A stretch of DNA of 64,000 nucleotides from Somniosus microcephalus (Eukaryota). Location of the stretch: NCBI GenBank assembly GCA_052327205.1, contig CM126205.1, positions 154,070,001 to 154,134,000 of the forward strand. Direction: 5' to 3'. Under the pieces are notes generated by a model that saw only the letters and a program-made list of their open reading frames with translations, did not search any database and had not been told where the DNA came from. A program made the position numbers and the translations under genes. Positions 36,848 through 61,400 of this stretch are shown here, piece after piece; positions within the stretch are counted from its first letter, which is position 1, and each line of letters begins with the position of its first letter.

Positions 36848-39800
36848 CAACACTATCTCAAAAGTAACTTTAAATAGATGGAGAACAATATCAGGCTCCA
36901 TCAGTGGAAGTGTCCATGTGGTAATCTGGTTTGAAAGATATTTTAGGGGAGGTTTTCCTGGGAATGTGCCCAGTTGCACTGGATCATGGTGCAGAGAATA
37001 TCGGAACATTGGACATGTGCTCCAACCTGCCCAGGTGATTCAGTGCATCCAGGCGCAGACCCAGGAGACCCTCCACCTGAACCATTATGACACTAATTAA
37101 ATTTAATTAAACCTGAGCTGAAACAAACAGCCATTAGTTACATACTGAACCATTTAACCTCTTGTCTAAACGTATAGGATTCAGGAACGGAAACCTTGGC
37201 CTGTGATTTGTGGTCAGTGGGGAAACAAAGACGTTCGCCGCTGGCCCCGAAGTAAGCTTCCCACAAAGATCTTGCGATCTTTGTGGCGAGCAGTTTGGCT
37301 TTTCCGACGTTCAGTTGAAATCAGTGTAAGTTAATGGGAATCCCTAACGTAAGCTGCTGTGACGTCAACAAGCTGTCTAAGCAGCCAATCACAATGCGGA
37401 ATTCTCACAGACTGGGAACTAGGACGCGAATAAGCTCCTTTTATTCTAACTTTTAAAAAATGTTAGAGAGAGCAAAACAAAGACTGGGGCTCTCACTCGG
37501 GGAAAAGGCAAACCTGAAATAAAGATGAACAAACTTTTTCGTTCGATGTTATTACCCAATTCTGGGCTCTTGGTTTTTTTTTAACCCCCAGCCCTGAGAA
37601 CTGAGTCCAGATGAAGTATTCTCACTGTAGCCTGCCTGAGATAAGCTAACTCAGCACAGACCTCTGATCTTCTCGTCCGCATGGCAGCTACGGTAGCGTA
37701 GTGGTAATGTCACTGGGCTAGTAATCCAGAGTTCAAATCCCACCACGGCAGCTGGGGAATTTAAATTCAGTTAATTAAATCTGGAATAAAAAGCTTGTAT
37801 CAGTAATGCTGATCATGAAACTACTGGATTGTCGTAAAAACCCATCTGGTTCACTAATGTCCTTTAGGAAAGGAAATCTGCCAGCCTTACCTGGTCTGAC
37901 CTATTTGTGACTCCAGACCCACAACAATGTGGTTGACTCTTAACTGCCCTCTGAAATGGCCTAGCAAGCCACTCAGTTGCAACAAACCGCTACGAAACAA
38001 AATAATAAGAATGAAACCAGACAGAACATCCGGCATCGACCTCGGCACCGGCTACAGACACGACAGTGGCACACCCAGCCCAGTCAACCCTGCAAAGTCC
38101 TCCTCACCAACATCTGGGGACTTGTACCAAAATTGGGAGAGCTGTCCCACAGACTAGTCAAGCAACAGCCTGACATAGTCATACTCACAGAATCATACCT
38201 TTCAGCCAATGTCCCAAACTCCTCCATCACCATCCCTGTCCCATCGGCAGGACAAACCCACCAGGGGTGGCGGCACAGTGGTATACAGTCGGGAAGGAGT
38301 GGCCTTGGGAGTCCTCAACATTAACTCCGGACCCCATGAAATCTCATTGCTTCAGGTCAAGCATGGGCAAGGAAACCTCCTGCTGATTACCACCTACCGC
38401 CCTCCCTCAGCTGATGAATCAGTACTCCTCCATGTTGAACACCACTTGGAAGAAGTACTGAGAGTAACGAGGGCACAGAATGTACTCTGGGTGGGTGACT
38501 TCAATGTCCATCACCAAGAGTGGCTTGGTAGCACCACTACTAACCGAGCTGGCTGAGTCCTGAATGACATAACTACCAGTCTGGGCCTGCGACAGGTGGT
38601 GAGTGAACCAACACAAGGGGGAAAACCTACTTGACCTCGTCCTCACCAATCTACCTGTCACAGATGCATCTGTCCATGACAGCATTGGTGGCAGTGACCA
38701 CCACACAGTCATTGTGGAGACGAAGTCCCGTCTTCACACTGAGGAACACCCTCCATCGTGTTGTGTGGCACTACCACCGTGCTAAATGGGATAGATTCAG
38801 AACAGATCTCGCAGCTGAAAACTGGACATCCATGAGGTGCTGTGGGCCATCAGCAGCAGCAGAATTGTATTCCACCACAATCTATAACCTCATGGCCTGG
38901 CATATCCCTCACTCTACCATTACCATCAAGCCAGGGGACCAACCCTGGTTCAATAAGGAGTGTAAAAGTGCATGCCAGGAGCAGCACCAGGCGTACCTAC
39001 AAATGAGGTGCCAACCTGGGGAAGCTGCAACACAGGACTACATGCATGCTAAAAAGTGTAAGCAGCATGCTATAGATAGGGCTAAGTGATCCCACAATCA
39101 ACGGATCAGATCAAAGCTCTGCAGTCCTGCCGCATCCAGTCGGGAATGGTGGTGGACCATGAAACAACTAACGGGAGGAAGAGGCGCCATGAATATCCCC
39201 ATCCTCAATGATGGTGGAGCCCAGCACGTGAGTGCAAAAGACAAGGCTGAAGCGTTTGCAACCATCTTCAGCCAAAAGTGCCTAGTGGATGATCCATATC
39301 GGCCTACTCCTGAGATCTCCACCATCACAGAAGCCAGTCTTCAGCCAATTCGATTCACTCCACGTGATATCAAGAAACGGCTGAGCGTACTGGATACAGC
39401 AAAGGCTATGGGCCCCGACAACATCCCGGCTACCATGCTGAAGACTTATACTCCAGAACTAGCAGCGCCTCTAGCCAAGCAGTTCCAGTACAGCTACAAC
39501 ACTGGCATCTATCCGACAATGTGGAAAACTGCCCAGGTATGCCCTGTCCACAAAAAGCTGGACAAATCCAACCCGATCAATTACCGCCCCATCAGCCTAC
39601 TCCCAATCATCAGCAAAGTGATGGAAGGTGTCATCGACAGTGTTATCAAGCGGCACTTACTCACCAAAAACCTGCTCACTGATGCCCAGTTTGGGTTCCG
39701 CCAAGACCACTTGGCTCCCGACCTCATTACAGTCTTGGTCCAAACATGGACAATTGAGCTGAATTCTAGAGGTGAGGTGAGAGTGACTGCCCTTGACACC

Positions 39801-41006
39801 AAGGCAGCATTTGACGGAGTATGGCATCAAGGAGCCCTAATAAAACTGAAGTCAATGATAATCGGGGGGAAAATGCTCCACTGGCTGGAGTCATACCTAG
39901 CACAAAGGAAGATGTTTGTGGTGGTTGAAGGTCAATCATCACAGCCCCAGTACATCGCTGCAGGAGTTCCTAGGCCCAACCATCTTCAGCTGCTTCATCA
40001 ATGACCTTCCCTCCAACATAAGGTCAGAAATGGGGATGTTCGTTGATGACTACACAGTGTTCAGCGCCATTCACAACTCATCAGATAATGAAGCAGTCCA
40101 TGCCCGCATGCAACAAGACCTGGACGACGTTCAGGCTTGAGCTGATAAGTGGCAAGTAACATTCACGCCACAGAAGTGCCAGGCAATGACTATCTCCAAC
40201 AAGCGAGAGTCTAACCACCTCCCCTTGACATTCAATGGCATTACCATCGCCGAATCCCCCACCATCAACATCCTGACCAGAAACTTAACTGGACTAGCCA
40301 CATAAATACTGTGGCAACAAGAGCAGGTCAGAGGCTAGGTATTCTGCGGTGAGTGTCTCCCTTCCTGACTCCCCAAATCTTTTCCACCATCGACAAGGTA
40401 CAAGTAAGGAGTGTGATGGAATTCTCTCCCGTTGCCTGGATGAGTGCAGCTCCAACAACACTTGAGAAGCTCGACACAAAGCAGCCCGCTTGATTGGCAC
40501 CCCATCCACCAGCTTAAACATTCACTCCCTCCACCACCGGCGTACCATGGCTGCAGTGTGCACTATCTACAAGATGCACTGCAGCAACTCGCCAAGGCTT
40601 CTTCGGCAGCAGCTCCCAAACCTGCGAACTCCACCACCTGGAAGGACAAGGGCAGCAGGTGCATGAGAACACCACCACCCCCAAGTTCCTCTCCAAGTCA
40701 CACACCATCCTGACTTAGAAGTATATCGCTGATCCTTCTTCATCGCTGGGTCAAAATCCTCGAACTCCCTCCCTAACAGCACTGTGGGAGTACCTTCACC
40801 ACACGGACTGCAGCGGTTCATAAATAGAGGCATAGAGTACAAAAGCAAGGAAGTTATGATGAACCTTTTGTGGTAAACCACTGTTATAGTTATCACTGTA
40901 TATTGTTCTCACTGTTCTCACTGTCACATCACTACACGAGGTCGCCTCTTGTCGCACTGTTATACCTGGGCTGACCACCTCCGACTCCGCCCATTACCTG
41001 CCCAGG

Positions 41007-41089
41007 TATAAAGGTAGCTGACTGGCTAGTATTCCTCCCTGTTGGATCGGATCACCCACGAGGGTGGGCTCTGTTATTTAGCCAATAAA
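41007..41089 (+). promoter_or_regulatory. LTR TATA box (TATAAA at 41007) and polyA signal (AATAAA at 41084)
   Basis: Motifs in the expected U3/R order, preceded by a GC box (CTCCGCCC). Confidence 0.6.
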
Positions 41090-41171
41090 AACCTTCAGTT
41101 ACGTTCTTAACTCGTCGCCTTTTATTGGACTAATTGATAGGCATATCAATTTTATTGGCTAAATTTTAAAG

Positions 41172-44100
41172 ATGTCTGATAATGAACAGCAACAGCAAGG
41201 AGCTCACCCAGCAGCACAGCAACAGCAGCCTCCAGACAACGGGCCACACCAGCCGGCTTGGCTGCAAGCCTTGAAACCACCATACCTGGATCTAAACCCA
41301 CAGGCACCAAACTCAGCCAACGACTTCAAACACTGGCTGGACTGCTTCGAATCGTACCTGGAGGAAGCCGTCGTCCCTCAGAGATCCAAACTAAGAGTCC
41401 TGAAAGCCCAAGCGAGCCCGAGAGTATATACACTCATCCAGGACATGACTACGTACGACGACGCCATCAACCTACTGAAACAGCAGTACCGGAGCCCGGT
41501 AAACTACATGTACACTAGGCATCTCTTAAGATCTCGCCAGCAACAGCCAGGAGAATCGATAGCTGAATTTTCACGAGCGCTGAGACAACTCGGCAGGAAC
41601 TGTGACTTTAAAGCGGTGACGGCTACTGCGAACATGGAAGACAATGTCCGCAACGCCTTGGTGAGAGGCCTACGTTCCGACTACACACGGCAAAGACTGC
41701 TTGAAGCTAAGGACATAGACCTGGACAAGGCCGAAGCCCTCGCCCTCACCCTAGAGGCCACCCAGCAAGACCAGGAAGCGTTTGCCAGGTACTATTCGCG
41801 ACCCTGGGACTCGGGCCCGACCCCCACCCCACCACCCTTCATAGCGCTGCCCCCGGGACCTACCTCAGCGTCTGCATCACGGATCCGACCGGGCCCGCTA
41901 GCCCCGGTACCGGCCCCGACATCAGGCAACCCCGATCGGGCCGCTGGCTGCTTCTTTTGCGGCCAGGAGAAGCATCCGAGGTCGCGCTGCCCAGCCAAAA
42001 ACTCGACCTGCAAAACCTGCCTCAAGAAAGGCCACTTCTCCAAGGCCTGCAGAAGCAAATCCTCAGAAGCCAGCAGTGCCTCATGCGAACCCTGGGGGCG
42101 GCCATCTTTGTGCGGGGCAGCCGAAGCCTGCAGAGCCTCATGGGAACAGCAGGGGCGGCCATCTTTGTGCGGGGCAAACGATTTAAACAGAGCCTCATGT
42201 GAACTACGGGGGCCGCCATCTTCGCCGCCATCTTGTCATGACAACGACGCGCTCATCTACACCCTAGCTTCCGTGACCCTGGATCAAGCCCGCCCGCACC
42301 ACCTGGCCAGCTCAATGATGGACATCAAAGTCAACGGCCACGCCACGACCTGCCTGTTCGACAGCGGAAGCACGGAGAGCTTCATCCACCCAGACACGGT
42401 GAGCCACTACTCCCTCCCCGTCCTGCCAACGCGCAGCCGCATCTCGATGGCATCGAGGTCGCACGCCACAGACATCAGCGGCTACTGTGTCGTGACATTG
42501 TCGGTTAAAGGGACAGAGTATAAAAATTTTAAACTCCTCGTACTCCCCCAGCTGTGCGCTGCCGTCATACTAGGGCTGGACTTCCAATCCCACCTCCAAA
42601 GTGTAACCCTAGCATACGGTGGACCCCTCCCCCCACTCACAGTCGACAACCAGCGAAAGTTAAACCGCCCACCGCGTAACACCTGCAGCCTATCCACCCT
42701 CAAGGTACCGCCACCTTCCCTGTTCGCTAACCTCACCCCCGACTGCAAACCTGTCGCTACTAAGAGCAGGCGGTACAGCGCTGGGGACAGAGCCTTCATT
42801 AGCTCTGAGGTGCAGCGACTCCTGAAAGAGGGCATTATTGAGGGGAGCAGCAGCCCCTGGCGTGCCCAGGTGGTGGTAGTCAAGACCGGCGACAAAAATC
42901 GCCTGGTTATCGACTACAGCCAGACCATAAACAGATACACCCAGCTGGACGCATACCCCCTCCCCCGCATATCGGACATGGTCAATGAGATTGCACAATA
43001 CCGCGTATTCTCGACCATCGACCTCAAGTCGGCCTACCACCAACTCCCCATCAGCCCGGAGGACAGCCAGTACACCGCCTTCGAGGCGAATGGCCGCCTC
43101 TACCAATTCCTTAGGGTCCCCTTTGGTGTCACCAACGGGGTCTCGGTTTTCCAACGGGAGATGGACCGGATGGTTGACCAGAACGGACTACAGGCCACTT
43201 TCCCCTATCTCGATAACGTCACCATCTGCGGCCGCAACCGGCAGGACCATGACGTGAATCTGGAGAAATTCCTCCGTACGGCCCAACGGCTGAACCTCAC
43301 CTACAATAAGGAGAAATGCGTGTTTAACACAGCGCGCCTTGCCATCCTTGGCTGTGTAGTAGAGAACGGAGTCATCGGCCCCGACCCCGAAAGAATGCGC
43401 CCCCTCATGGAGCTACCCCTCCCCCACTGTCCAAAAGCACTTAGGAGAACCCTGGGGCTTTTCGCCTACTATGCCCAATGGGTACCCAATTATGCGGACA
43501 AAGCCAGACCCCTCCTGAAAACCACATCCTTCCCCCTCACGGAAGAGGCGTGCGCGGCCTTCTCCCTCATTAAGGGAGACATAGCCAAGGCCACAATGCA
43601 CGCAGTGGATGAGTCAATCCCCTTCCAAGTGGAGAGCGATGCATCCGACTTCGCCCTAGCCGCTACCCTTAACCAGGAGGGTAGGCCGGTAGCCTTCTTC
43701 TCAAGGACCCTACAGGGCCCCGAGACCCGACACTCGTCGGTCGAGAAGGAAGCCCAGGCAATTGTGGAAGCAGTACGGCGCTGGAGGCACTACTTGGCAG
43801 GCAAACGATTTACCCTCCTCACCGACCAACGCTCGGTTGCCTTCATGTTTAATAACAAGCTGAGGGGCAAGATCAAGAACGACAAAATCTTGAGGTGGAG
43901 AATCGAGCTTTCCACCTATGATTATGAGATCTTGTACCGGCCCGGTAAACTGAACGACCCCCCTGATGCTCTTTCACGCATTACATGCGCCAGCGCGCAA
44001 AGTGATAGACTTCAGACCCTCCACAATGACCTCTGCCACCCCGGAGTCACCAGACTCTACCATTTCATTAAGGCCCGCAACCTGCCATACTCCATCGAGG

Positions 44101-45041
44101 AGGTCAGGACCATGACCAGGAACTGCCAGATCTGTGCTGAGTGCAAACCGCACTTCTATAAGCCGGACAGAGCAAGCCTGATCAAGGCCACCCGCCCCTT
44201 CGAGCGTCTGAGCATCGACTTCAAGGGGCCCCTACCGTCATCCGACCGTAATGTGTACTTCCTCAACATCGTTGATGAGTACTCCCGTTTCCCCTTTGCC
44301 TTCCCCTGCCCAGACATGACCAGTAACACGGTCATTAAATGCCTGAACAAACTCTTCGCCTTGTTCGGGTTCCCGAACTATATACATAGTGACCGGGGCG
44401 CCTCCTTCATGAGCGAGGAACTCCGTCAGTTCCTATTGGAGAGGGGTATTGCAGCAAGCAGGACCACCAGCTACAACCCCCGAGGGAACGGCCAGGTGGA
44501 AAGAGAGAACGCGACGGTATGGAAGGCCACCCTCTTAGCCTTAAAGTCTAAGGGCCTCCCAACCTCCCGCTGGCAAGAGGTCCTCCCGATTGCGCTGCAC
44601 TCCATCCGGTCACTACTTTGCACTGCCATTAACACCACCCCCCATGCCCGAATGTTTGTCTTCCCCAGGAAGTCGACTACGGGAACCACCCTACCAACCT
44701 GGCTGACCTCTCCGGGACCCGTCTTGCTGCGAAAGCACGTGAGGGCCCATAAAACGGACCCCCTGGTCGAGAAGGTGAACCTCCTGCACGCCAACCCCCA
44801 GTACGCCTATGTGGCTTACCCAGACGGACGGGAGGACACTGTCTCCTTACGAGACCTCGCACCCTCACCCCCCCCTCCCAACCCCCCGAGTCCAGCCGAG
44901 GTAGACGGCATGCCGGAACCCCACGAGCCTTTGCCGACTACGCAGACACCAGCTTTAACACCGGATAATGTAACACCGCCGCTGCGACGATCGGAGAGGC
45001 TAACGAAGCCTCCGGACAGACTGACATACCAGAGCTGGTAA
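41172..45041 (+). CDS. Gypsy Gag-Pol polyprotein, 1289 aa
   Basis: Two CCHC knuckles, protease LFDSGS, RT (IDLKSAYHQ, PFGV, YLDN), RNase H (SDAS, EKEA, TDQ), integrase (HHCC, DFKGP, SDRG, VERE); order PR-RT-RH-IN. Confidence 0.96.
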   Translation: MSDNEQQQQGAHPAAQQQQPPDNGPHQPAWLQALKPPYLDLNPQAPNSANDFKHWLDCFESYLEEAVVPQRSKLRVLKAQASPRVYTLIQDMTTYDDAINLLKQQYRSPVNYMYTRHLLRSRQQQPGESIAEFSRALRQLGRNCDFKAVTATANMEDNVRNALVRGLRSDYTRQRLLEAKDIDLDKAEALALTLEATQQDQEAFARYYSRPWDSGPTPTPPPFIALPPGPTSASASRIRPGPLAPVPAPTSGNPDRAAGCFFCGQEKHPRSRCPAKNSTCKTCLKKGHFSKACRSKSSEASSASCEPWGRPSLCGAAEACRASWEQQGRPSLCGANDLNRASCELRGPPSSPPSCHDNDALIYTLASVTLDQARPHHLASSMMDIKVNGHATTCLFDSGSTESFIHPDTVSHYSLPVLPTRSRISMASRSHATDISGYCVVTLSVKGTEYKNFKLLVLPQLCAAVILGLDFQSHLQSVTLAYGGPLPPLTVDNQRKLNRPPRNTCSLSTLKVPPPSLFANLTPDCKPVATKSRRYSAGDRAFISSEVQRLLKEGIIEGSSSPWRAQVVVVKTGDKNRLVIDYSQTINRYTQLDAYPLPRISDMVNEIAQYRVFSTIDLKSAYHQLPISPEDSQYTAFEANGRLYQFLRVPFGVTNGVSVFQREMDRMVDQNGLQATFPYLDNVTICGRNRQDHDVNLEKFLRTAQRLNLTYNKEKCVFNTARLAILGCVVENGVIGPDPERMRPLMELPLPHCPKALRRTLGLFAYYAQWVPNYADKARPLLKTTSFPLTEEACAAFSLIKGDIAKATMHAVDESIPFQVESDASDFALAATLNQEGRPVAFFSRTLQGPETRHSSVEKEAQAIVEAVRRWRHYLAGKRFTLLTDQRSVAFMFNNKLRGKIKNDKILRWRIELSTYDYEILYRPGKLNDPPDALSRITCASAQSDRLQTLHNDLCHPGVTRLYHFIKARNLPYSIEEVRTMTRNCQICAECKPHFYKPDRASLIKATRPFERLSIDFKGPLPSSDRNVYFLNIVDEYSRFPFAFPCPDMTSNTVIKCLNKLFALFGFPNYIHSDRGASFMSEELRQFLLERGIAASRTTSYNPRGNGQVERENATVWKATLLALKSKGLPTSRWQEVLPIALHSIRSLLCTAINTTPHARMFVFPRKSTTGTTLPTWLTSPGPVLLRKHVRAHKTDPLVEKVNLLHANPQYAYVAYPDGREDTVSLRDLAPSPPPPNPPSPAEVDGMPEPHEPLPTTQTPALTPDNVTPPLRRSERLTKPPDRLTYQSW

Positions 45042-46517
45042 TACACTTCACCCCGCCGGACTCTAATCTAAACAAGGGGTGAATGTGGTAAACCACTGTT
45101 ATAGTTATCACTGTATATTGTTCTCACTGTTCTCACTGTCACATCACTACACGAGGTCGCCTCTTGTCGCACTGTTATACCTGGGCTGACCACCTCCGAC
45201 TCCGCCCATTACCTGCCCAGGTATAAAGGTAGCTGACTGGCTAGTATTCCTCCCTGTTGGATCGGATCACCCACGAGGGTGGGCTCTGTTATTTAGCCAA
45301 TAAAAACCTTCAGTTACGTTCTTAACTCGTCGCCTTTTATTGGACTAATTGATAGGCATATCACCTTTATAAAACACTGGTTCGGCCTCAACTGGAGTAT
45401 TGTATCCAATTCTGGGCACTGCACTTTAGGAAGGATGTGAAGGCTTTAGAGAGGGTGCAGAAAAGATTTATAAGAATGGTTCCAGGGGTGAGGGACTTCA
45501 GTTACAGTTACGTGGATAGACTGGAGAAGCTGGGGTTGTTCTTCTTAGAGCAGAGATGATTGAGAGGAGATTTTATAGAGGTGTTCAAAATCATGACGGG
45601 TCTAGACAGAGTAGATAGAGAGAAACTGTTCCCATTGGCGAAAGGGTCGAGAACCAGAGGACACAGATTTAAGGTGATTGGCAGAATAACCAAAGGTGAT
45701 GTAAGAAAAATCTTTTATACTCAGCGAGTGGTTATGATCTGGAATGCACTGCCTGAAAGGGTGGTGGAGGCAGACTCAATCGTGGCTTTCAAAATGGAAT
45801 TGGATAAATGCTTGAAAGAAAAGAAATTGCAGGGCTACGGGGAAAAGGTGGGACTAGCTGAAGTGCTTTTGCAGAGAGCCAGCACGGGCCGAATGGCCTC
45901 CTTCTATGCTTTAACCATTCTATGATTCTATGGTTCAAGAAGGCGGCTCACCACCACCTTCTCGAGGGCAATTGGGGATGGGCAATAAATGCTGGCCTTG
46001 CCAGCGACGCCCACATCCCATAAACGAATAAAAAAAACTTCTACCAACTGAGCCACTGGAGGAGCATTGCTGCTGTAAAATTGTGAAGTACATGCAACAA
46101 AGCCCAAGTCCTGAGAATGAGCATGGTCGAGTACCGTGGAGCGCAGCATTATTGACTGTAGGACCAGTTCAACTCACTGACACTTGAATTCACACTCTAA
46201 TTTTAAATAGCGCTGGTGAGAGGAGCATATGGCAAGTGTGACCCCAGCTGGTAACTTCCTCCACGCTCAGGCAGCCAGGCGATGCCAGTGCACCAGCACT
46301 GCACACACTGCTGATTAAAATTTAAAGTGCCGCTCAGCCTGGGACACGGTTGCAACAATCAACACCGTGGTTTTAAAAAACTTATTTGGACTAATGTGTT
46401 GCAGGAAAATTGCAAACATTTTTTAGCTTGTATCACAAAATGACTTAGTCATTTTTATTTTTAAATTAATTAGAAAATAGAACTACCTTTTACAAAAACA
46501 TGTTTTCCCATTTTTAG

Positions 46518-46668
46518 ACATGTAATTGATTGGCTGAAAGCAAAATTCCAAGGAAGCGAAAGGGCGGATGATCCAGATAGTGATGCTGATGATGTTATTC
46601 AGACACACCTGTGCAAAGCAGTGAGCAGCAGTGAAGCAATCGATGTGCTTGTGCACATCTGTGTAAAG
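46518..46668 (+). CDS. MCM3AP: MCM3AP/GANP exon (HVIDWLKAKFQG...VLVHICVK)
   Basis: ccatttttAG and AAG|GTAAGG; matches human LANWLKVKFMG...VNVCIK; phase 2-0. Confidence 0.93.
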
Positions 46669-48850
46669 GTAAGGGCCCCGCGTGCTCATCTGTGTAAAAG
46701 TAAGGGCCTCGCTAACTCATCTGCAAAGGTAAGGAGTTTGTACACATCTGTGTAAGATAAGGAGCTCGCGCACACATCTTTGTAAGGTAAGGGGCTCGCG
46801 CACACACCTGTAGGGTAAGGAGCTCGCGCACACACCTGTGTAAGGTAAGGAGCTCGCGCACACACCTGTGTAAGGTAAGGAGCTCGCGCTCACATCTGTG
46901 TAAGGTAAGGGGCTCGCGCACACACCTGTAGGGTAAGGAGCGCACGCACACACCTGTGTAAGGTAAGGAGCTCGCGCACACACCTGTGTAAGGTAAGGAG
47001 CTCGCGCTCACATCTGTGTAAGGTAAGGAGCTCGCGCACACACCTGTGTAAGGTAAGGAGCTCGCGCACACACCTGTAAGGTAAGGAGCTCGCGCACACA
47101 CCTGTGTAAGGTAAGGAGCTCGCGCACACACCTGTGTAAGGTAAGGAGCTCGCGCACACACCTGTGTAAGGTAAGGGGCTCGCGCGCACACCTGTAAGGT
47201 AAGGAGCTCGCGCACACACCTGTAAGGTAAGGAGCTCGCGCTCACATCTGTAAGGTAAGGAGCTCGCGCTCACATCTGTAAGGTAAGGGGCTCGCGCGCA
47301 CACCTGTAAGGTAAGGAGCTCGCGCGCACACCTGTAAGGTAAGGAGCTCGCGCACACACCTGTAAGGTAAGGAGCTCGCGCTCACATCTGTAAGGTAAGG
47401 AGCTCGCGCGCACATCTGTGTAAGGTAAGGAGCTCGCGCGCACACCTGTAGGGTAAGGAGCTCGCGCGCACACCTGTAAGGTAAGGAGCTCGCGCTCACA
47501 TCTGTGTAAGGTAAGGAGCTCGCGCGCACATCTGTGTAAGGTAAGGAGCTCGCGTGCACATCTGTGCAAGGTAAGGGGCTCGCGCTCACATCTGTGTAAG
47601 GTAAGGAGCTCGCGCGCACACCTGTAGGGTAAGGAGCTCGCGCGCACACCTGTAAGGTAAGGAGCTCGCGCTCACATCTGTGTAAGGTAAGGAGCTCGCG
47701 CGCACATCTGTGTAAGGTAAGGAGCTCGCGTGCACATCTGTGCAAGGTAAGGGGCTCGCGCTAACATCTGTAAGGTAAGGATCTCGCGCGCACATCTGTG
47801 TAAGGTAAGGAGCTCGCGCGCACATCTGTGTAAGGTAAGGAGCTCGCGCTCACATCTGTGTAAGGTAAGGAGCTCGCGCTCACATCTGTGTACGGTAAGG
47901 AGCTCGCGCTCACATCTGTGTAAGGTAAGGAGCTCGCGCGCACATCTGTGTAAGGTAAGGAGCTCGCGCGCACATCTGTGTAAGGTAAGGGGCTCGCGCA
48001 CACATCTGTGTAAGGTAAGGGGCTCGCGCGCACACCTGTAGGGTAAGGAGCTCGCGCACACACCTGCAAGGTAAGGAGCTCGCGCGCACACCTGTGTAAG
48101 GTAAGGAGCTCGCGCGCAAACCTGTGTAAGGTAAGGGGCTCGCGCTCACATCTGTGTAAGGTAAGGAGCTCGCGCGCACATCTGTGTAAGGTAAGGAGCT
48201 CGCGTGCACATCTGTGCAAGGTAAGGGGCTCGCGCTAACATCTGTAAGGTAAGGATCTCGCGCGCACATCTGTGTAAGGTAAGGAGCTTGCGCTCACATC
48301 TGTGTAAGGTAAGGATCTCGCGCTCACATCTGTGTAAGGTAAGGATCTCGCGCGCACATCTGTGTAAGGTAAGGAGCTCGCGCACACATCTGTGTAAGGT
48401 AAGGAGCTCGCGCACACATCTGTGTAAGGTAAGGAGCTCGCGCTCACATCTGTGTAAGGTAAGGAGCTCGCGCTCACATCTGTGTAAGGTAAGGAGCTCG
48501 CGCTCACATCTGTGTAAGGTTAGGAGCTCGCGCTCACATCTGTGTAAGGTAAGGAGCTCGCGCACACATCTGTGTAAGGTAAGGAGCTCGCGCTCACATC
48601 TGTGTAAGGTAAGGAGCTCGCGCTCACATCTGTGTAAGGTAAGGAGCTCGCGCACACATCTGTGTAAGGTAAGGAGCTCGCGCACACATCTGTGTAAGGT
48701 AAGGGGCTCGCGCTCACACCTGTGTAAGGTAAGGAGCTTGCGCTCACATCTGTGTAAGGTAAGGAGCTCGCGCTCACATCTGTGTAAGGTAAGGAGCTCG
48801 CGCTCACATCTGTGTAAGGTAAGGGCCTCACAGAGCTGTATAAAGGTTAG
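46654..48850 (+). repeat. 28/30-bp minisatellite CACATCTGTGTAAG|GTAAGGAGCTCGCGCT, about 70 units
   Basis: Direct reading; the first unit overlaps the MCM3AP exon end and splice donor. Confidence 0.97.
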
Positions 48851-48947
48851 TCTTTTCAAGGTTGACTTGAAAAGGTTCTGTAACCTAAAAGTTCTTCCCA
48901 AAGTTACATTTGTGTCCCCTATTAGTGATCTGTGGTTTTCTCAACAG

Positions 48948-49206
48948 GTGACCAAAGGCCCTCTGAGTGACACAGACATGGATGCAATGGAACAGCGGAA
49001 GGAGCTGCTGGGAACAACTGCCCTGATCCTCTTGCTACCAGCTCGTGAAGAAGGCACAGACCAGGACGAGGAGAAAGTCTACTGGCTCTCTGCTATGCTT
49101 CACATCAGACAACTCTTGCAAGCTAAACCTTTAAATCCTGCAGTCCCACTGGTCATCCTTGTTCCCAGAGAGGAAAAGGCATTGAATGAGGAAGAGGTGA
49201 TAGAAG
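48948..49206 (+). CDS. MCM3AP: MCM3AP/GANP exon (VTKGPLSD...VYWLSAMLHIRQLLQAKPLNPAVPLVILVP...)
   Basis: ttttctcaacAG/GTgaga; matches human [30 protein letters not shown]; phase 0-1. Confidence 0.95.
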
Positions 49207-49537
49207 GTGAGATCTGGAGTCAACCTTTACGACTGCCGTGCAATAGTAAAGGCTGGAAACTTGGAAATGTTGTTCATTTTTAAATTGAAGTTTTTGCCTT
49301 GAGTTTTTAGATAATGCAGGTATGTCTAACAATTGTAAACATGAGAAATTCTCTCGCCAATATATTTAAAACACAATTTAACACAATGAAATGAAACTGT
49401 GTTCAGCCAGCATGTTTGGTTTACAGTAATTGATTGCTGCTATTACAGTCACTCTTGTCAGATTCAAGCTAGAACTTATTTGTAAGATCCGCTGATTGCT
49501 GTAAATGGCATGCATCTTGATAAAACCTTAGTACGAT

Positions 49538-50348: not shown

Positions 50349-50848
50349 NNNNNNNNNNNNNNNNNNNNNNNNNNNNNNNNNNNNNNNNNNNNNNNNNNNN
50401 NNNNNNNNNNNNNNNNNNNNNNNNNNNNNNNNNNNNNNNNNNNNNNNNNNNNNNNNNNNNNNNNNNNNNNNNNNNNNNNNNNNNNNNNNNNNNNNNNNNN
50501 NNNNNNNNNNNNNNNNNNNNNNNNNNNNNNNNNNNNNNNNNNNNNNNNNNNNNNNNNNNNNNNNNNNNNNNNNNNNNNNNNNNNNNNNNNNNNNNNNNNN
50601 NNNNNNNNNNNNNNNNNNNNNNNNNNNNNNNNNNNNNNNNNNNNNNNNNNNNNNNNNNNNNNNNNNNNNNNNNNNNNNNNNNNNNNNNNNNNNNNNNNNN
50701 NNNNNNNNNNNNNNNNNNNNNNNNNNNNNNNNNNNNNNNNNNNNNNNNNNNNNNNNNNNNNNNNNNNNNNNNNNNNNNNNNNNNNNNNNNNNNNNNNNNN
50801 NNNNNNNNNNNNNNNNNNNNNNNNNNNNNNNNNNNNNNNNNNNNNNNN
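50349..50848. other. Assembly gap (500 N)
   Basis: Run of exactly 500 n. Confidence 1.
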
Positions 50849-53800
50849 CCCCCGCCTCTTCCTCTTCGCTCCCCCCGCCTCTTCTCTCCCCCCGCCTCTT
50901 CTCTCTCTCCCCCCCCGCCTCTTCTCTCCCCCCGCCTCTTCTCTCCCCCCCGCCTCTTCTCTCCCGCCTCCCCCGCCTCTTCTCTCCCCCCCGCCTCTTC
51001 TCTCCCCCCGCCTCTTCTCTCCCCCCCGCCTCTTCTCTCCCCCCCCGCCTCTTCTCTCCCCCCCGCCTCTTCTCTCCCCCCCGCCTCTTCTCTCCCCCCC
51101 GCCTCTTCTCTCCCCCCCGCCTCTTCTCTCCCCCCCCGCCTCTTCTCTCCCCCCCGCCTCTTCTCTCCCCCCCGCCTCTTCTCTCCCCCCCGCCTCTTCT
51201 CTCCCCCCCGCCTCTTCTCTCCCCCCCGCCTCTTCTCTCCCCCCCGCCTCTTCTCTCCCCCCCGCCTCTTCTCTCCCCCCCGCCTCTTCTCTCCCGCCCC
51301 CCCGCCTCTTCTCTCCCCCCCGCCTCTTCTCTCCCCCCCGCCTCTTCTCTCCCCCCCGCCTCTTCTCTCCCCCCCGCCTCTTCTCTCCCCCCCGCCTCTT
51401 CTCTCCCCCCCCGCCTCTTCTCTCCCCCCCGCCTCTTCTCTCCCCCCCGCCTCTTCTCTCCCCCCCGCCTCTTCTCTCCCCCCCGCCTCTTCTCTCCCCC
51501 CCCGCCTCTTCTCTCCCCCCCGCCTCTTCTCTCCCCCCCGCCTCTTCTCTCCCCCCCGCCTCTTCTCTCCCCCCCGCCTCTTCTCTCCCCCCCGCCTCTT
51601 CTCTCCCCCCCGCCTCTTCTCTCCCCCCCGCCTCTTCTCTCCCCCCCGCCTCTTCTCTCCCCCCCGCCTCTTCTCTCCCCCCCGCCTCTTCTCTCCCCCC
51701 CGCCTCTTCTCTCCCCCCCGCCTCTTCTCTCCCCCCCGCCTCTTCTCTCCCCCCCGCCTCTTCTCTCCCCCCCGCCTCTTCTCTCCCCCCCGCCTCTTCT
51801 CTCCCCCCCGCCTCTTCTCTCCCCCCCGCCTCTTCTCTCCCCCCGCCTCTTCTCTCCCCCCCGCCTCTTCTCTCCCCCCCGCCTCTTCTCTCCCCCCCGC
51901 CTCTTCTCTCCCCCCCGCCTCTTCTCTCCCCCCCGCCTCTTCTCTCCCCCCGCCTCTTCTCTCCCCCCCGCCTCTTCTCTCTCCCCCCCCGCCTCTTCTC
52001 TCCCCCCCGCCTCTTCTCTCCCCCCCCGCCTCTTCTCTCCCCCCCGCCTCTTCTCTCCCCCCCGCCTCTTCTCTCCCCCCCGCCTCTTCTCTCCCCCCCG
52101 CCTCTTCTCTCCCCCCCGCCTCTTCTCTCCCCCCCGCCTCTTCTCTCCCCCCCGCCTCTTCTCTCCCCCCCCGCCTCTTCTCTCCCCCCCCGCCTCTTCT
52201 CTCCCCCCCGCCTCTTCTCTCCCCCCCGCCTCTTCTCTCCCCCCCGCCTCTTCTCTCCCCCCCGCCTCTTCTCTCCCCCCCGCCTCTTCTCTCCCCCCCG
52301 CCTCTTCTCTCCCCCCCGCCTCTTCTCTCCCCCCCGCCTCTTCTCTCCCCCCCCGCCTCTTCTCTCCCCCCCGCCTCTTCTCTCCCCCCCGCCTCTTCTC
52401 TCCCCCCCGCCTCTTCTCTCCCCCCCGCCTCTTCTCTCCCCCCCGCCTCTTCTCTCCCCCCGCCTCTTCTCTCCCCCCCGCCTCTTCTCTCCCCCCCGCC
52501 TCTTCTCTCCCCCCCGCCTCTTCTCTCCCCCCCGCCTCTTCTCTCCCCCCCGCCTCTTCTCTCCCCCCCGCCTCTTCTCTCCCCCCCGCCTCTTCTCTCC
52601 CCCCCCGCCTCTTCTCTCCCCCCCGCCTCTTCTCTCCCCCCCGCCTCTTCTCTCCCCCCCCGCCTCTTCTCTCCCCCCCGCCTCTTCTCTCCCCCCCGCC
52701 TCTTCTCTCCCCCCCGCCTCTTCTCTCCCCCCCGCCTCTTCTCTCCCCCCCGCCTCTTCTCTCCCCCCCGCCTCTTCTCTCCCCCCCGCCTCTTCTCTCC
52801 CCCCCGCCTCTTCTCTCCCCCCCGCCTCTTCTCTCCCCCCCGCCTCTTCTCTCCCCCCCGCCTCTTCTCTCCCCCCCGCCTCTTCTCTCCCCCCCGCCTC
52901 TTCTCTCCCCCCCGCCTCTTCTCTCCCCCCCGCCTCTTCTCTCCCCCCCGCCTCTTCTCTCCCCCCCGCCTCTTCTCTCCCCCCCCGCCTCTTCTCTCCC
53001 CCCCGCCTCTTCTCTCCCCCCCGCCTCTTCTCTCCCCCCCGCCTCTTCTCTCCCCCCCGCCTCTTCTCTCCCCCCCGCCTCTTCTCTCCCCCCCGCCTCT
53101 TCTCTCCCCCCCCCGCCTCTTCTCCCCCGCTTTCTCTCCCCCCCGCCTCTTCTCTCCCCCCCCGCCTCTTCTCTCCCCCCCGCCTCTTCTCTCCCCCCCG
53201 CCTCTTCTCTCCCCCCCGCCTCTTCTCTCCCCCCCGCCTCTTCTCTCCCCCCCGCCTCTTCTCTCCCCCCCGCCTCTTCTCTCCCCCCCGCCTCTTCTCT
53301 CCCCCCCGCCTCTTCTCTCCCCCCGCCTCTTCTCTCCCCCCCCGCCTCTTCTCTCCCCCCCGCCTCTTCTCTCCCCCCCGCCTCTTCTCTCCCCCCGCCT
53401 CTTCTCTCCCCCCGCCTCTTCTCTCCCCCCGCCTCTTCTCTCCCCCCCGCCTCTTCTCTCCCCCCCGCCTCTTCTCTCCCCCCCGCCTCTTCTCTCCCCC
53501 CCGCCTCTTCTCTCCCCCCCGCCTCTTCTCTCCCCCCCGCCTCTTCTCTCCCCCCCGCCTCTCTTCTCTCCCCCCCGCCTCTTCTCTCCCCCCCCGCCTC
53601 TTCTCTCCCCCCCGCCTCTTCTCTCCCCCCCGCCTCTTCTCTCCCCCCCGCCTCTTCTCTCCCCCCCGCCTCTTCTCTCCCCCCCGCCTCTTCTCGCTCT
53701 CCCCCCCGCCTCTTCTCTCCCCCCCGCCTCTTCTCTCCCCCCCGCTCTTCTCTCCCCCCCGCCTCTTCTCTCCCCCCCCCGCCTCTTCTCTCCCCCCCCC

Positions 53801-55062
53801 GCCTCTTCTCTCCCCCCCCCCGCCTCTTCTCTCCCCCCCCCCCCCCGCCTCTTCTCTCCCCCCCCCCCCCCCGCCTCTTCTCTCCCGCCCCCCCCCCCCC
53901 GTACCCTCTCACTCCCCGCCCCCTCTACGCTGGGAATTGTGCTATGACCCTCAATCACATCATCTGACATGTTGTTTTTATTTCTGGTTTTTATTTTCCC
54001 CTTCTTGCTTTGCTCCATTGTGGCATCCTTTTTTTTGTTTATCCTGATGGAGTCTCATTCTAAACATTAACCAATCTTTCTCTTTCTGGTATAACAACAG
54101 AAAACGCTGGAAAAACTCAGCATCCCTTTTGTTCTTTCATCTCCTCCCCCTTTTCCCAGCCCCTAAACTTGCTTTCCATTTTGTGCTTTTTTCCAGTTCC
54201 GACGAAGGGTCATCGACCTGAAACGTTAACCCTGTTTCTCTCTCCACGGATGCTGCCTGGCCTGCTGAGTGTTTCCAGCGTTTTCTGTTGTTATTTCGGA
54301 TTTCCAGCATCTGCAGTATTTTGCTATTGTATTTCTCTTTCTGGTGCTGAGTCACCTGTTTGATGTTGTTTATTTCCCTTTGGGTTCTCTTGTTCCATCT
54401 ATTCTTTACAGAAGCTAACATTATTTCTTGCTGTTTGAGTTTAAATGCTCTCTGTCCCATGATCCCCTAATGGATTCACTGCCTGTAAGGGCGTGTCAGT
54501 TTCTCGATAATGGAACAGGATTTTACCCATACTCCTTTGCCAGAGTTGACATCATTCTATAATCACTGCGAATTACACTGTGACAGAGCAGCCTGGGGGC
54601 AACTTTAAGGTCGGGGTGAACTGTCAAGGTCAATTTTATAGAGCTTTATTGCAGCAAATAATTGCAAGACATATTTTGAAATTGTATTTTACTTTGGTAC
54701 ACTGAGCAGCATCCCAACCACTGGAGTACTGTGCTCAGAGGGCTTCAGTTGGAATCCTACCCCAGATGCACACTTGCAGCCTGCTACTTTGTAGGTTGAT
54801 ATAGTTAAATCTTGAGGAGGCTAAAGAGGACAGCATTGCGATGCAAATGTTAGAGGCATAAGTATTAACAATTTGACCTCCTGACACCATCTTCTAGATG
54901 TGTTGAAAACTTCCATTGTGTGGTGTTTCCTGAAATGTGTCCACAGCTGCTAATGACCAGGCTATAATGTTGGCCCTGATGCAGAGTGCAGCTTGGTATG
55001 ATGTGATGAGAAAATGCATGAACGAGCTGTGACAGATGGGTTTTTTTTCTGCTGTGTTGCAG

Positions 55063-55131
55063 GTTGCTGCAGAGGAGGAAGGAGACAGCTCATCAAATGA
55101 GAGTTCAGAATTTCTACCAGCAGCTCCTCTG
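55063..55131 (+). CDS. MCM3AP: Duplicate copy of MCM3AP exon 32824-32892 (probably the alternate haplotype)
   Basis: Same sequence and splice sites at offset 22239, downstream of the N gap. Confidence 0.75.
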
Positions 55132-58100
55132 GTACAGGAACTCGTTTGTGAAATTTTGTGGCGTAGATTCAGTTGCAGACACCATTGACATTCTCACCTT
55201 TCACAAAGGATAGTCATTGCTCTGTTTATTTAGGCTGTTGAGTTACAGTCCCCACCACCTATACCGTCGCCGTTTATCCAGGACAGCCATCTATATAACT
55301 GGCAAATGTTGCTGACCACTTGCTATTAGAATAGGCATCAATTATAAAGGTGTCGCTTAAACTGCATTAAGACGACCAACTATTTCAGGCAGGTCAAACA
55401 GCTCTTCGGGGTCCTCTTCTATCCGCCCCTGTTCACTGGTGTACACCTCGCAGCACTGGTTTTAATGGTTCTTTTACTTGTTCATGGGATGTGGACGTCG
55501 CTGGCAAGGCCAGCATTTATTGCCAATCCCTAATTGCCCTTGAGAAGGTGGTGGTGAGCCACCTTCTTGAACTGCTGCAGTCCTTGCGGTGAAGGTACTC
55601 CCACAGTGCTGTTAGGGAGGGAGTTCCAGGATTTGGACCCAGTGACGATGAAGGATCGGCGATATATTTCCAAGTCAGGATGGTGTGTGACTTGGAGGGG
55701 ACCTTGGAAGTGATGGTGTTCCCATGCGCCTGCTGCCCTTGTCCTTCTAGGTGGAAGAGGTCGTGGGTTTGGGAGGTGCTACCGAAGAAGCCTTGGCGAG
55801 TTGCTGCAGTGCATCTTGGAGATGGTACACACTGCAACCATGGTATGCCGGTGGTGGAGGGAGTGAATGTTTAAGGTGGTAGATGGGGTGCCAATCAAGC
55901 GGGCTGCTTTGTCCTGGATGGTGTGAATACCCAGCCTCTGAGCTGCTCTTGTAGCCACAGTATTTGTATGGCTGGTCCAGTTAAGTTTTTGGTCAGTGGT
56001 GACCCCCAGGATGTTGATGGTGGGGGATTCAGCGATGGTAACGCCATGAAATGTCATGGGGAGGTGGTTAGACTCTCTCTTTGGAGATAGTCATTGCCTG
56101 GCACTTGTGTGGCGTGAATGTTACCTGCAACTTATCAGCCCAAGCCTGAATGTCGTCCAGGTCTTGCTGCATGTGGGCATGAACTGCTTCATTATCTGAG
56201 GAGTTGCAAATGGGAATAATATAATGTATTTGAATCAGTCCCTTATTAAGTGTTAATTTCTGAAACGCATTCACAAATGAGGTGGCAATGTTTCCGGAAC
56301 TTTGAAATTGACCAGGGCAGTTTGTAGGTAGCAACCTCTACAGTCTAACTGTTACTTTCGGAGGAGCTGATGATTATACGAACAAAGAAATATATAAATT
56401 TAGCCATTTGCACTGTTGTAATGTATTTGTAAGAAGTCACACAACACCAGGTTATAGTCCAACAGCTTTATTTGAAATCACAAGCTTTCAGAGCGCTGCT
56501 CCTTCGTCAGGTGAAGTGGAGAAATGCATAAAGACACAGCTTATATAGTCAGAGAATCATGTCAGATGTTTACAGGTAATGTTTCCAACTGCCATTTATC
56601 ACACCTCGGCAGAGAGATAATCACAGCAATCAAAGGGGTGAATGGTGTCCAAACAGGTCAGTCAGGAAAACATTACATCAAAGAACAATGAGGTTGGGTC
56701 ACAAGGGGTCAAATATTGCAGATGCTGGGGTCTGTATGAAAAACAAAAAAAACAGACAAAAAACATTTTTTTTTGTTGCTGGAAATCACAGCAGGTCCGG
56801 CCGCATCTGTGTAGAGAGAACAAGCCAATGTCGACTCGAGTCATCCAGTACTTTCCCGGAGCGGAGAAACTACGCCATGTTCTTCGCAGCCTTCAACATG
56901 TCATTGATGACGACGAACACCTCGCTAAGCCATCCCCACGCCTCCACTACTCGCTTTCAAACAGCCGCCTAACCTCAAACAGACCATCGTTCGCAGCAAA
57001 TTACCCAGCTTTCAGGAGAACAGCGACCACGACACCACACAACCCTGCCACAGCAACCTCTGCAAGACATGCCAGATCATCAACACAGATACCATCATCA
57101 CACGTGAGGACACCACCCACCAGGTACATGGTACATACTCATGTGACTCGGCCAACGTTGTCTACCTCATACGTTGCAGGAAAGGATGCCCCGGAGCATG
57201 GTACATCGGCGAGACCATGCAGACACTGCGACAACGGATGAACGGACACCGTGCAACAATCACCAGGCAGGAGTGTTCCCTCCCAGTCGGGGAACACTTC
57301 AGCAGTCAAGGACATTCAGCCTCCGATCTTCAGGTAAGCATTCTCCAAGGCGGCCTTCGAGACACACGACAACGCAAAATCGTCGAGCAGAAACTGATAG
57401 CCAAGTTCCGCACCCATGAGGACGGCCTCAACCGAGATCTTGGGTTCATGTCACGCTACATGTAACCCCACCTGACGCAGGGTCATCCAGACTCGAGTCG
57501 ACATTGGCTTGTTCTCTCTACACAGATGCGGCCGGACCTGCTGTGATTTCCAGCAACAAAAAAAAATGTTTTTTGTCTGTTTTTTTTGTTTTTCATACAG
57601 ACCCCAGCATCTGCAATATTTGACCCCTTGTGACCCAACCTCATTGTTCTTTGATGTAATGTTTTCCTGACTGACCTGTTTGGACACCATTCACCCCTTT
57701 GATTGCTGTGATTATCTCTCTGCCGAGGTGTGATAAATGGCAGTTGGAAACATTACCTGTAAACATCTGACATGATTCTCTGACTATATAAGCTGTGTCT
57801 TTATGCATTTCTCCACTTCACCTGACGAAGGAGCAGCGCTCTGAAAGCTTGTGATTTCAAATAAAGCTGTTGGACTATAACCTGGTTTTGTGTGACTTCT
57901 TACATTTGTCCACCCCAGTCCAACTCCGGCATCTCCACACATAATGTATTTGAATCACCCTGTTATTAAATATTAAGTTCTGAAAGACATTCACAAACAC
58001 AGCGGCAGCAATTCAGGAGCTTTGAAATTGACCAGGACAGGGCTTTAGAGGACATTACTTTTGAACAGTGTGATTTTAATTTTATTAACTCTACCACGTT

Positions 58101-58323
58101 GTACCAGCCGTCATGTATCGTGGGCACATTGCATTTGCATGGACATGCGGTTTAAAGTGGTGGGGACTATAAATAGCTGAAAGGATCTTTTGTCCAGATG
58201 GAGTCAATGGGCAGTGCACTTTGTTGTATATGATTTAAGGGCCGCTAATGTTTGTTGTATATGATGCCCATGAGGCAAGATACAGCAGTTATTCCTAAAT
58301 TTGAATTCTAATTTATCTTTTAG

Positions 58324-58458
58324 TGAAGCTGCCTGGACTCCTTTGGATTTGTTCACATTGGTTGCAGATAGCTTCCCAACTCGTCAGGAGAAAATCTTCT
58401 GGAAGGTTGTTCTACTGTTGCCAAGTGATGAAGAATATGGACTTAGTGACAGCAACAG
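58324..58458 (+). CDS. MCM3AP: Duplicate copy of MCM3AP exon 36037-36171 (probably the alternate haplotype)
   Basis: Same sequence and splice sites at offset 22287. Confidence 0.75.
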
Positions 58459-61400
58459 GTTAGCTTCTAAACCCAGTGACTCCCTGTCTCTCTGTTTTAA
58501 GCCGTATTTTGTTAAGTGTTTGCCATCTTACTGACTCCAGTTTGCTGTACCAGTCGATGAGTTGTAAACTGTAAATGTGCCACAACTCACCTCATTCAGC
58601 ATTTGACTAGCTGCCTGGGCGAGTTGTCTAGCCAAGCTAATCCATACCAGGAGGGAGGGCAATTCTGCTCATCTTTGAATGGTTGGTTACAAAGACAGTG
58701 CAAGGGGCCTTGGAGTAGATTGTACACCCACCCTGTCACCTGAGGACTGGTGCAGGGCACAGAGGAGCCAAAAGGGAGTGTTTGTTTGGTGAGGGTGTGG
58801 CTCCCTCCTGGGTTCCTCTGTCTCTGGGAGCTAGGCACACCTGCAGCAGAGAGGGAGGGGGATGGTTGGGCAATGTCCTTTCCAGCCTCCTCTCACTGCT
58901 GCTGTCGGCCAGCATGTAGGAAATCCATACGTTGGCTGGAGACTGTCTTGTTTTTCCACCTCCTCAGAAAGATGCTTGGCTTTTGCTCAGCCTCACCAAT
59001 GCACTCCCCTCCCCTCTCCCAATGGTGCAGCTGAGGCAGGAAACTCGGCAGAGTGGGAGGAACCAAACACATCTCTGACCAGTGCCACCACACCAATGCT
59101 CTGACCAGTGCCACCACACCGATGCTCTGACCAGCAACACTATCTCAAAAGTAACTTTAAATAGATGGAGAACAATATCAGGCTCCATCAGTGGAAGTGT
59201 CCATGTGGTAATCTGGTTTGAAAGATATTTTAGGGGAGGTTTTCCTGGGAATGTGCCCAGTTGCACTGGATCATGGTGCAGAGAATATCGGAACATTGGA
59301 CATGTGCTCCAACCTGCCCAGGTGATTCAGTGCATCCAGGCGCAGACCCAGGAGACCCTCCACCTGAACCATTATGACACTAATTAAATTTAATTAAACC
59401 TGAGCTGAAACAAACAGCCATTAGTTACATACTGAACCATTTAACCTCTTGTCTAAACGTATAGGATTCAGGAACGGAAACCTTGGCCTGTGATTTGTGG
59501 TCAGTGGGGAAACAAAGACGTTCGCCGCTGGCCCCGAAGTAAGCTTCCCACAAAGATCTTGCGATCTTTGTGGCGAGCAGTTTGGCTTTTCCGACGTTCA
59601 GTTGAAATCAGTGTAAGTTAATGGGAATCCCTAACGTAAGCTGCTGTGACGTCAACAAGCTGTCTAAGCAGCCAATCACAATGCGGAATTCTCACAGACT
59701 GGGAACTAGGACGCGAATAAGCTCCTTTTATTCTAACTTTTAAAAAATGTTAGAGAGAGCAAAACAAAGACTGGGGCTCTCACTCGGGGAAAAGGCAAAC
59801 CTGAAATAAAGATGAACAAACTTTTTCGTTCGATGTTATTACCCAATTCTGGGCTCTTGGTTTTTTTTTAACCCCCAGCCCTGAGAACTGAGTCCAGATG
59901 AAGTATTCTCACTGTAGCCTGCCTGAGATAAGCTAACTCAGCACAGACCTCTGATCTTCTCGTCCGCATGGCAGCTACGGTAGCGTAGTGGTAATGTCAC
60001 TGGGCTAGTAATCCAGAGTTCAAATCCCATCACGGCAGCTGGGGAATTTAAATTCAGTTAATTAAATCTGGAATAAAAAGCTTGTATCAGTAATGCTGAC
60101 CATGAAACTACTGGATTGTCGTAAAAACCCATCTGGTTCACTAATGTCCTTTAGGAAAGGAAATCTGCCAGCCTTACCTGGTCTGACCTATTTGTGACTC
60201 CAGACCCACAACAATGTGGTTGACTCTTAACTGCCCTCTGAAATGGCCTAGCAAGCCACTCAGTTGCAACAAACCGCTACGAAACAAAATAATAAGAATG
60301 AAACCAGACAGAACATCCGGCATCGACCTCGGCACCGGCTACAGACACGACAGTGGCACACCCAGCCCAGTCAACCCTGCAAAGTCCTCCTCACCAACAT
60401 CTGGGGACTTGTACCAAAATTGGGAGAGCTGTCCCACAGACTAGTCAAGCAACAGCCTGACATAGTCATACTCACAGAATCATACCTTTCAGCCAATGTC
60501 CCAAACTCCTCCATCACCATCCCTGTCCCATCGGCAGGACAAACCCACCAGGGGTGGCGGCACAGTGGTATACAGTCGGGAAGGAGTGGCCTTGGGAGTC
60601 CTCAACATTAACTCCGGACCCCATGAAATCTCATTGCTTCAGGTCAAGCATGGGCAAGGAAACCTCCTGCTGATTACCACCTACCGCCCTCCCTCAGCTG
60701 ATGAATCAGTACTCCTCCATGTTGAACACCACTTGGAAGAAGTACTGAGAGTAACGAGGGCACAGAATGTACTCTGGGTGGGTGACTTCAATGTCCATCA
60801 CCAAGAGTGGCTTGGTAGCACCACTACTAACCGAGCTGGCTGAGTCCTGAATGACATAACTACCAGTCTGGGCCTGCGACAGGTGGTGAGTGAACCAACA
60901 CAAGGGGGAAAACCTACTTGACCTCGTCCTCACCAATCTACCTGTCACAGATGCATCTGTCCATGACAGCATTGGTGGCAGTGACCACCACACAGTCATT
61001 GTGGAGACGAAGTCCCGTCTTCACACTGAGGAACACCCTCCATCGTGTTGTGTGGCACTACCACCGTGCTAAATGGGATAGATTCAGAACAGATCTCGCA
61101 GCTGAAAACTGGACATCCATGAGGTGCTGTGGGCCATCAGCAGCAGCAGAATTGTATTCCACCACAATCTATAACCTCATGGCCTGGCATATCCCTCACT
61201 CTACCATTACCATCAAGCCAGGGGACCAACCCTGGTTCAATAAGGAGTGTAAAAGTGCATGCCAGGAGCAGCACCAGGCGTACCTACAAATGAGGTGCCA
61301 ACCTGGGGAAGCTGCAACACAGGACTACATGCATGCTAAAAAGTGTAAGCAGCATGCTATAGATAGGGCTAAGTGATCCCACAATCAACGGATCAGATCA

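Follow-up and report, generated by a model that had tools for sequence, protein, structure and literature searches.

A minisatellite seated on an exon/intron junction of MCM3AP carries about 73 donor copies in a shark genome

In a window of 64,000 nucleotides from the genome of the shark Somniosus microcephalus, by which we mean the whole stretch of DNA that was analysed, we have characterized a tandem array occupying most of an intron of MCM3AP (GANP). In the reading that we favor, with a probability of roughly 0.75, the array is a single-locus intronic minisatellite built on an exon/intron junction of this gene, which carries the donor about 73 times, which likely originated from a 31-bp duplication and is likely neutral, and which is probably removed in its entirety during splicing, owing to choice of the first donor. 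The array, its parts and the two flanking exons are located on the forward strand.

The array resides between two coding exons of MCM3AP. The upstream exon (46518–46668, 151 nt) ends in phase 0 with the residues HICVK; it covers positions 121–169 of the Pfam model MCM3AP_GANP (PF16769), matches residues 1362–1413 of shark GANP in tblastn and is contained in a spliced contig of run X9. Its acceptor AG, as read from the sequence, is found at 46516–46517, and the start of the exon at 46518 is a small correction to the original prediction. The next exon (48948–49206, 259 nt, with the sequence VTKGPLSD at its start) aligns with positions 171–253 of PF16769 (E 1.4e-29) and is 92% identical to Carcharodon GANP, the model positions of both exons being adjacent. 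GANP proteins of sharks are the best matches in the database, and no solved structure was found for this second exon. All 18 of 18 homologues, which are database representatives with one isoform each, are colinear over the junction of 46668 with 48948 and show no insertion. This junction is located near residue 1412 of about 1,960 in GANP. The authentic 5' splice site AAG/GTAAGG at 46666–46674 is cut after 46668, as evident from the X9 contig, and shows a predicted U1 duplex energy of –10.0 kcal/mol. The first unit of the array spans this real boundary, as established by the Pfam match, the 18 homologues, the spliced contig and a period-31 self-match, and the original prediction was correct in equating the unit with the genuine junction at 46668.

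The architecture of the array was defined by TRF, which places it at 46654–48824 with a period of 30, 73.7 copies and 90% matches, and by a decomposition based on the donors, which identifies 74 unit boundaries and 73 full units in 29 sequence variants. Most full units are either 30 nt (51 units) or 28 nt (20 units) long, with single units of 31 and 29 nt. These numbers agree with the anticipated 70 or so tandem copies of an MCM3AP exon end with its 5' splice site, and the expected filling of nearly the entire 2.3-kb intron is reflected in the 94% of its 2,279 nt that consist of minisatellite. A junction-like 18-mer, allowing for up to two mismatches, was found 55 times, in every case within the array, compared to 0 matches in each of 100 shuffles; these 55 copies are the product of one amplified locus and not of independent events.

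At its 5' end, the array contains four edge units (46669–46786), the first three of which are degenerate, with 23/31, 21/30 and 24/30 matches to the core consensus, followed by a fourth with 27/30. Their boundaries include a weak AAA/GT at 46700, an intact site at 46729 and a dead AAG/AT at 46757. The subsequent homogenised core (46787–48818), as defined by TRF and the decomposition, consists of 28- and 30-bp units, each closed by a donor copy, and its unit lacks one A that is present in the true exon end. Blocks of four to five units recur within this core. A last degenerate unit of 27 nt (48819–48845) is similar to the edge units at the 5' end and closes with AAG/GTTAGT; it shows 21/31 matches to unit 1, likewise to the consensus, and a predicted U1 duplex energy of –6.7. 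The unique intron tail (48846–48947) includes the 3' splice site, with CAG at 48945–48947. The core also displays a polarity, with units bearing CACC and units of 28 nt found toward the 5' half and 30-nt CATC units toward the 3' half, and two of its multi-unit blocks are each found twice.

As originally noted, the array is dense in CpG, with 162 of these dinucleotides and an observed/expected ratio of 0.98, compared to 0.38 and 0.54 in two flanking stretches. Its GC content of 55.6% combined with this ratio over 2.17 kb corresponds to the composition of a CpG island (longer than 500 bp, with high GC and CpG observed/expected). CpG transitions account for three to four of the 13 variant alleles outside the donor positions of the array, which is a weak hint that it may be methylated.

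The near-consensus donor AAG/GTAAG had been proposed to be present in nearly every unit, which is what we observe. The GT is kept at 73 of 74 unit boundaries, the real donor counted, and the nine bases around the cut read AAG/GTAAGG at 65 of them, AGG/GTAAGG at five, and AAA/GTAAGG, ACG/GTAAGG, AAG/GTTAGG and AAG/ATAAGG at one each. Besides the real donor, the frame remains open with a single alternative site at 46726–46734, where a cut between 46728 and 46729 would add 60 nt and thus 20 residues. A weak donor between 46699 and 46700, which was missing from the original prediction, shifts the frame, and each of the 70 GT donors further downstream can only be reached through an in-frame TAA at 46753–46755. 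Frame analysis of the 73 GT donors thus yields two that are open (the real donor and 46728), one that is frameshifting (46699) and 70 that cross the stop, in line with the earlier description of the in-frame site and of the TAA behind it. Since the junction is found near residue 1412 of the protein, stops reached from later donors would, by established rules, make the respective transcripts substrates of nonsense-mediated decay (NMD).

As a measure of donor strength, we used the predicted energy of the duplex with U1. By this measure, the real donor and 63 downstream copies are alike at –10.0 kcal/mol, a value that is reached by only 12 of 2,129 background GT sites, which makes the copies credible as U1 sites. 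Each unit also contains a second GT, 5 nt upstream, for which the predicted pairing is weak, at about –5 kcal/mol. The predicted unpaired probability of the core from –1 to +4 is 0.33 for the real donor, with a median of 0.16 for the core copies and a range of 0.015–0.36 for seven other donors of the gene; these values offer no real discrimination, and we have discarded a masking of the array donors by RNA structure as an explanation. There is no sign of selection either to keep or to kill the donors in a comparison of low power, since the 70 core units contain four variant alleles in the nine donor columns, compared to 13 in the 21 columns elsewhere. Damage is seen in two of the first three copies, as selection against nearby competitors might bring about, but with roughly one position in four altered in the edge units, drift would be expected to have the same effect. 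When inspected as potential decoy exons or recursive sites, the units end in AAG instead of YAG, and the number of pyrimidines in the 20 nt upstream, with 12–13 in three units and 12–14 in two real acceptors, is a count that does not discriminate. Separately, one frame is open from 48225 to 49283, through the last 19–20 units and 129 nt of intron tail into the next exon. We have rejected it as coding, as no acceptor leads into it and as the 30-nt units are free of stops in one frame, and its continuation through the 129-nt tail is probably due to chance.

To see which donor is used, we relied on sequencing runs, four of which (X3, X4, X9 and X11, out of 23) were compared over the interval 46200–46760 only. 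None of the 23 is recorded as RNA, which carries no information on expression. A contig of 485 nt in run X9, with 0 differences over 46516–46670, joins the previous exon, which ends at 36171, to the exon 46518–46668 and the latter to the exon at 48948, where its loose letters match from 48950 onward. Although the record does not state RNA, we infer that the contig is derived from RNA, because both introns are absent. Run X9, which comes from the same organism as the window or a near-identical one, belongs to the same sample as a DNA run that contains every one of the 53 words sampled from the downstream exon region; it is labelled with another organism than the other full DNA match, and its contig coverage ends at 46670. 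The contig shows that the normal junction is made from the first donor, as a matter of presence and not of proportions, and it bears on the array if the allele of X9 carries the latter, and the junction of 46668 with 48948 that had been listed as a check in transcripts was thus found once. Contigs ending at 46699 or 46728 were not found in the runs examined over 46200–46760, with contigs being a form of data that drops rare forms. Run X3 contains no contig on this interval, whereas the contig of X4, of which about 55% was read, ends at 46598, and neither of them informs on the array.

The origin of the array is illuminated by a self-match of period 31 at the real junction, where the last 18 bases of the exon recur after 13 bases of intron with 16 of 18 positions identical, which defines a likely seed duplication at 46651–46699 composed of 18 exonic and 13 intronic bases. 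Contigs of run X11 come from another organism, a related shark, whose flank is about 95% identical (22 substitutions in an alignment of about 476 bases). One of them, which is unique, contains a 27-nt extra copy of the exon end and donor. Another contig, 61 nt in length, matches 46651–46698 except at one base and is covered at a depth of 46.7 compared to 10.8 in the unique flank. A perfect 31-bp tandem would give rise to 61 nt in a 31-mer graph, the word size of these assemblies, and the contig fits a collapsed tandem of a 31-bp unit, whose copy number, judged from the two depths, would be about five or higher. Judged from clipped ends, the unit of the relative would be equivalent to unit 1 of the window with a G in place of the last A and with an intact donor. 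Because the relative also repeats the junction, the repeat likely predates the split of the two sharks. The unit type differs between the two, and the first extra copies in the relative are found at different offsets, with the 27-nt unit being first. The expanding unit thus appears to have changed since the split, from a 31-bp form found in the relative to the derived 30- and 28-bp forms found here, with old units (21–24 matches to the core consensus) left at both edges of the array, while the recurring blocks of four to five units point to recent unequal exchange or slippage. The proposed derivation of the array from the exon/intron junction is thus supported, and its likely starting point can be narrowed to the 31-bp duplication described above.

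The array belongs to a known class of junction-spanning donor minisatellites, exemplified by F7, IFI6 and CBS and also described as mirages. The locus termed 6-16 in this literature is IFI6. The shark array shares the features of the class, a head-to-tail repeat with a first unit across the boundary, a reiterated donor and normal mRNA derived from the donor furthest upstream, the latter in one contig from one of four runs. Minisatellites with a first unit over an exon/intron boundary are described for human F7, 6-16, CBS, LAMIN B2 and PDGF in PMC1557585. According to this study, the donor copies in the 37-bp VNTR of F7 intron 7 are competent, yet use is confined to the functional donor furthest upstream, also where stronger sites follow it, and minigenes with 1 to 12 units show the same splicing pattern; two proximal pseudo-donors are used in addition in 6-16 and CBS, whereas LMNB2 and PDGF are reported to use the true donor only (PMC1557585). 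For CBS, a review relates repeat number to enzyme activity (PMC5188458). In amphioxus, the mirages of Adh3 and the globins BflGb6 and BflGb9 are portrayed as tandem duplications of exon/intron boundaries that leave splicing normal and whose units at the boundaries have diverged (PMC3087553), and repeats at such boundaries are said to be capable of creating alternative splicing (PMC2812944).

The best-studied analogue is F7 (Borensztajn et al., 2006), where the first unit equally spans the boundary, the donor is reiterated in the intron and the product shows only the most upstream donor. However, F7 contains 5–9 copies with four exonic bases per unit, compared to about 73 copies with 13–18 exon-derived bases filling 94% of the intron in the shark, and its polymorphism and donor competence were tested, whereas the shark array is known from sequence and one spliced contig. 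Junction-spanning arrays with 10 to about 26 donors are also found in IFI6 intron 2, CBS intron 13 (31 bp, a unit size similar to that of the shark), LMNB2 (100 bp) and PDGF intron 4 (81 bp), and the shark array exceeds the largest of them about threefold in copy number. With the amphioxus mirages it shares the tandem duplication of a boundary, the maintenance of normal splicing, a homogenised core and divergent boundary units, but mirages have units of 10–160 bp, are often on the acceptor side and show length instability, whereas the shark array is on the donor side, in a jawed vertebrate, and carries evidence of unit change between two species. A looser resemblance exists to decoy exons that promote intron retention (PMC6097662) and to a U1 enhancer of PAH exon 11 (PMC5933811), where intronic sites engage splicing factors without productive splicing; these are single elements, either conserved or defined by mutation, with tested function, unlike the fast-turnover array of the shark, whose donors are not conserved more than their surroundings and in whose units we saw no good acceptor. 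Our search of the literature found no paper on this locus among the matches listed, which were 20 of 8,644 for broader terms. Distinctive points are the copy number, which is large for a donor array of a vertebrate among the arrays compared, and the indication that one unit has replaced another between the two sharks, from a 31-bp ancestor to 30/28-bp descendants.

In the favored reading, a 31-bp duplication over the MCM3AP junction would have started the repeat, and mutation to a 30/28-bp unit would have spread by slippage or unequal exchange, with the edge units remaining old. The first donor would be chosen by exon definition or by upstream-first selection as in human F7, rare transcripts from later donors would be removed by NMD and there would be at most minor leakage to such donors. 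The combination of degenerate edges, homogeneous core and repeated blocks matches the concerted evolution with excluded boundary units seen in amphioxus mirages. Neutrality allows, but does not require, that junction repeats persist in two lineages that are about 5% apart. Of the original interpretation, the origin from the junction is supported, based on the period-31 match and the contigs, whereas its functional proposals are not supported, in light of a spliced contig that uses the first donor, donor columns that are no better conserved than others and the analogy to F7.

The main rival to neutrality is a length-dependent effect in cis, in which additional U1 binding would either leak splicing to proximal, mostly NMD-bound copies or strengthen the definition of the 151-nt exon, with array length tuning the output of MCM3AP. 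Weighing against the neutral reading in this respect are the 63 copies predicted to equal the real donor in U1 energy and not clearly hidden by structure, and the precedents of human IFI6 (6-16) and CBS, with two proximal pseudo-donors used in both and a repeat number that tracks enzyme activity in the latter. By analogy to CBS, where both are reported, low-level use of proximal donors or an effect of length is possible. Further points in its favor are the enhancement of PAH exon 11 splicing by downstream U1 binding, as reported in PMC5933811, the described abundance of splicing-associated repeats in humans (PMC10078293) and a frame that is broken by skipping of the 151-nt exon or by most later donors. 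We nevertheless consider this effect unlikely, as F7 minigenes with 1 to 12 copies are reported to leave the splicing pattern unaltered (PMC1557585) and as the array shows no donor-specific conservation. A bolder version, which we regard as distinctly improbable, would treat the donor array as a length-variable splicing dial kept across shark lineages, where U1 sites stacked behind a frame-breaking exon would set the amount of MCM3AP/GANP mRNA despite the replacement of the unit. Even less probable is a selected regulatory switch between the real donor, the in-frame donor at 46728 adding 20 residues and later donors coupled to NMD. Although the site at 46728 is intact and in frame and junction repeats are common to the relative, an insertion at the junction is found in 0 of 18 homologues, the site at +60 is not conserved in the relative as far as the X11 contigs show, where offsets differ, and chance would be expected to place one of the few sites ahead of the first stop in frame. 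The NMD-coupled choice of donors offered in the original prediction is thus not supported, with the sole spliced contig using 46668.

The same prediction had envisaged the array as a U1 decoy, and a nascent transcript with about 73 sites of strong predicted U1 pairing would at first sight suit a sponge that lowers free U1 for other genes. However, a mammalian cell is reported to hold about one million U1 (PMC10870369), whereas the few nascent transcripts that we estimate would expose hundreds of sites, well under 0.1% of this pool, and the decoy exons of erythroblasts are described as conserved cassettes that bind U2AF beside acceptors and not as donor arrays (PMC6097662). A sponge acting in trans is thus implausible, and we assign it almost no weight. 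We also find it very hard to believe that the array, although real, is inflated in length or mis-assembled. A 500-N gap and a near-identical duplicate of 28475–41712 right after it do reveal an imperfect local assembly, but the 29 unit variants in an ordered, polarised pattern are unlike a collapsed or looped assembly, and the array is located 1.5 kb before the gap with the intact next exon in between.

If the array is neutral, it provides a large vertebrate example of a known oddity, where the normal junction is made despite about 72 downstream GT sites, and it fits the upstream-first rule of F7 with a copy number roughly ten times as high. Possible uses are as a marker locus or as a ready-made substrate for experiments on donor choice, and it would matter more only if its length changed the output of MCM3AP.

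Other parts of the window contain additional repeats. After the gap of 500 N at 50349–50848, the stretch 28475–41712 is repeated at 50849–64000, which amounts to 13 kb and includes two MCM3AP exons. With an identity of 99.9% (35311–41712 compared to 57598–64000), the duplicate probably represents either a false duplication or the second haplotype; the donor array in this copy would be located about 5 kb past the end of the window and could reveal a length polymorphism. The intron before the exon 46518–46668 contains an apparently intact and young LTR retrotransposon of the Gypsy type (40869–45370), with terminal repeats of 287 bp that are 99.3% identical and an open frame of 1,292 residues (41163–45041) encompassing protease, RT, RNase H and integrase domains. 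Within the coding region of MCM3AP, an in-frame exonic repeat of 21 bp (13884–13976) encodes RIEDEKR four times, compared to once in 14 aligned non-tetrapod homologues (13 of them named as cartilaginous fishes), so that 21 residues, equivalent to three heptads, are added to a stretch that is probably helical and precedes the ENY2-binding CID region. Finally, a minisatellite composed exclusively of C and T, with a unit of 18–19 bp, is found in another MCM3AP intron (27433–31649, 223 copies) and in its duplicate (50861–53839, 164 copies), with both copies differing in length and unit mix.
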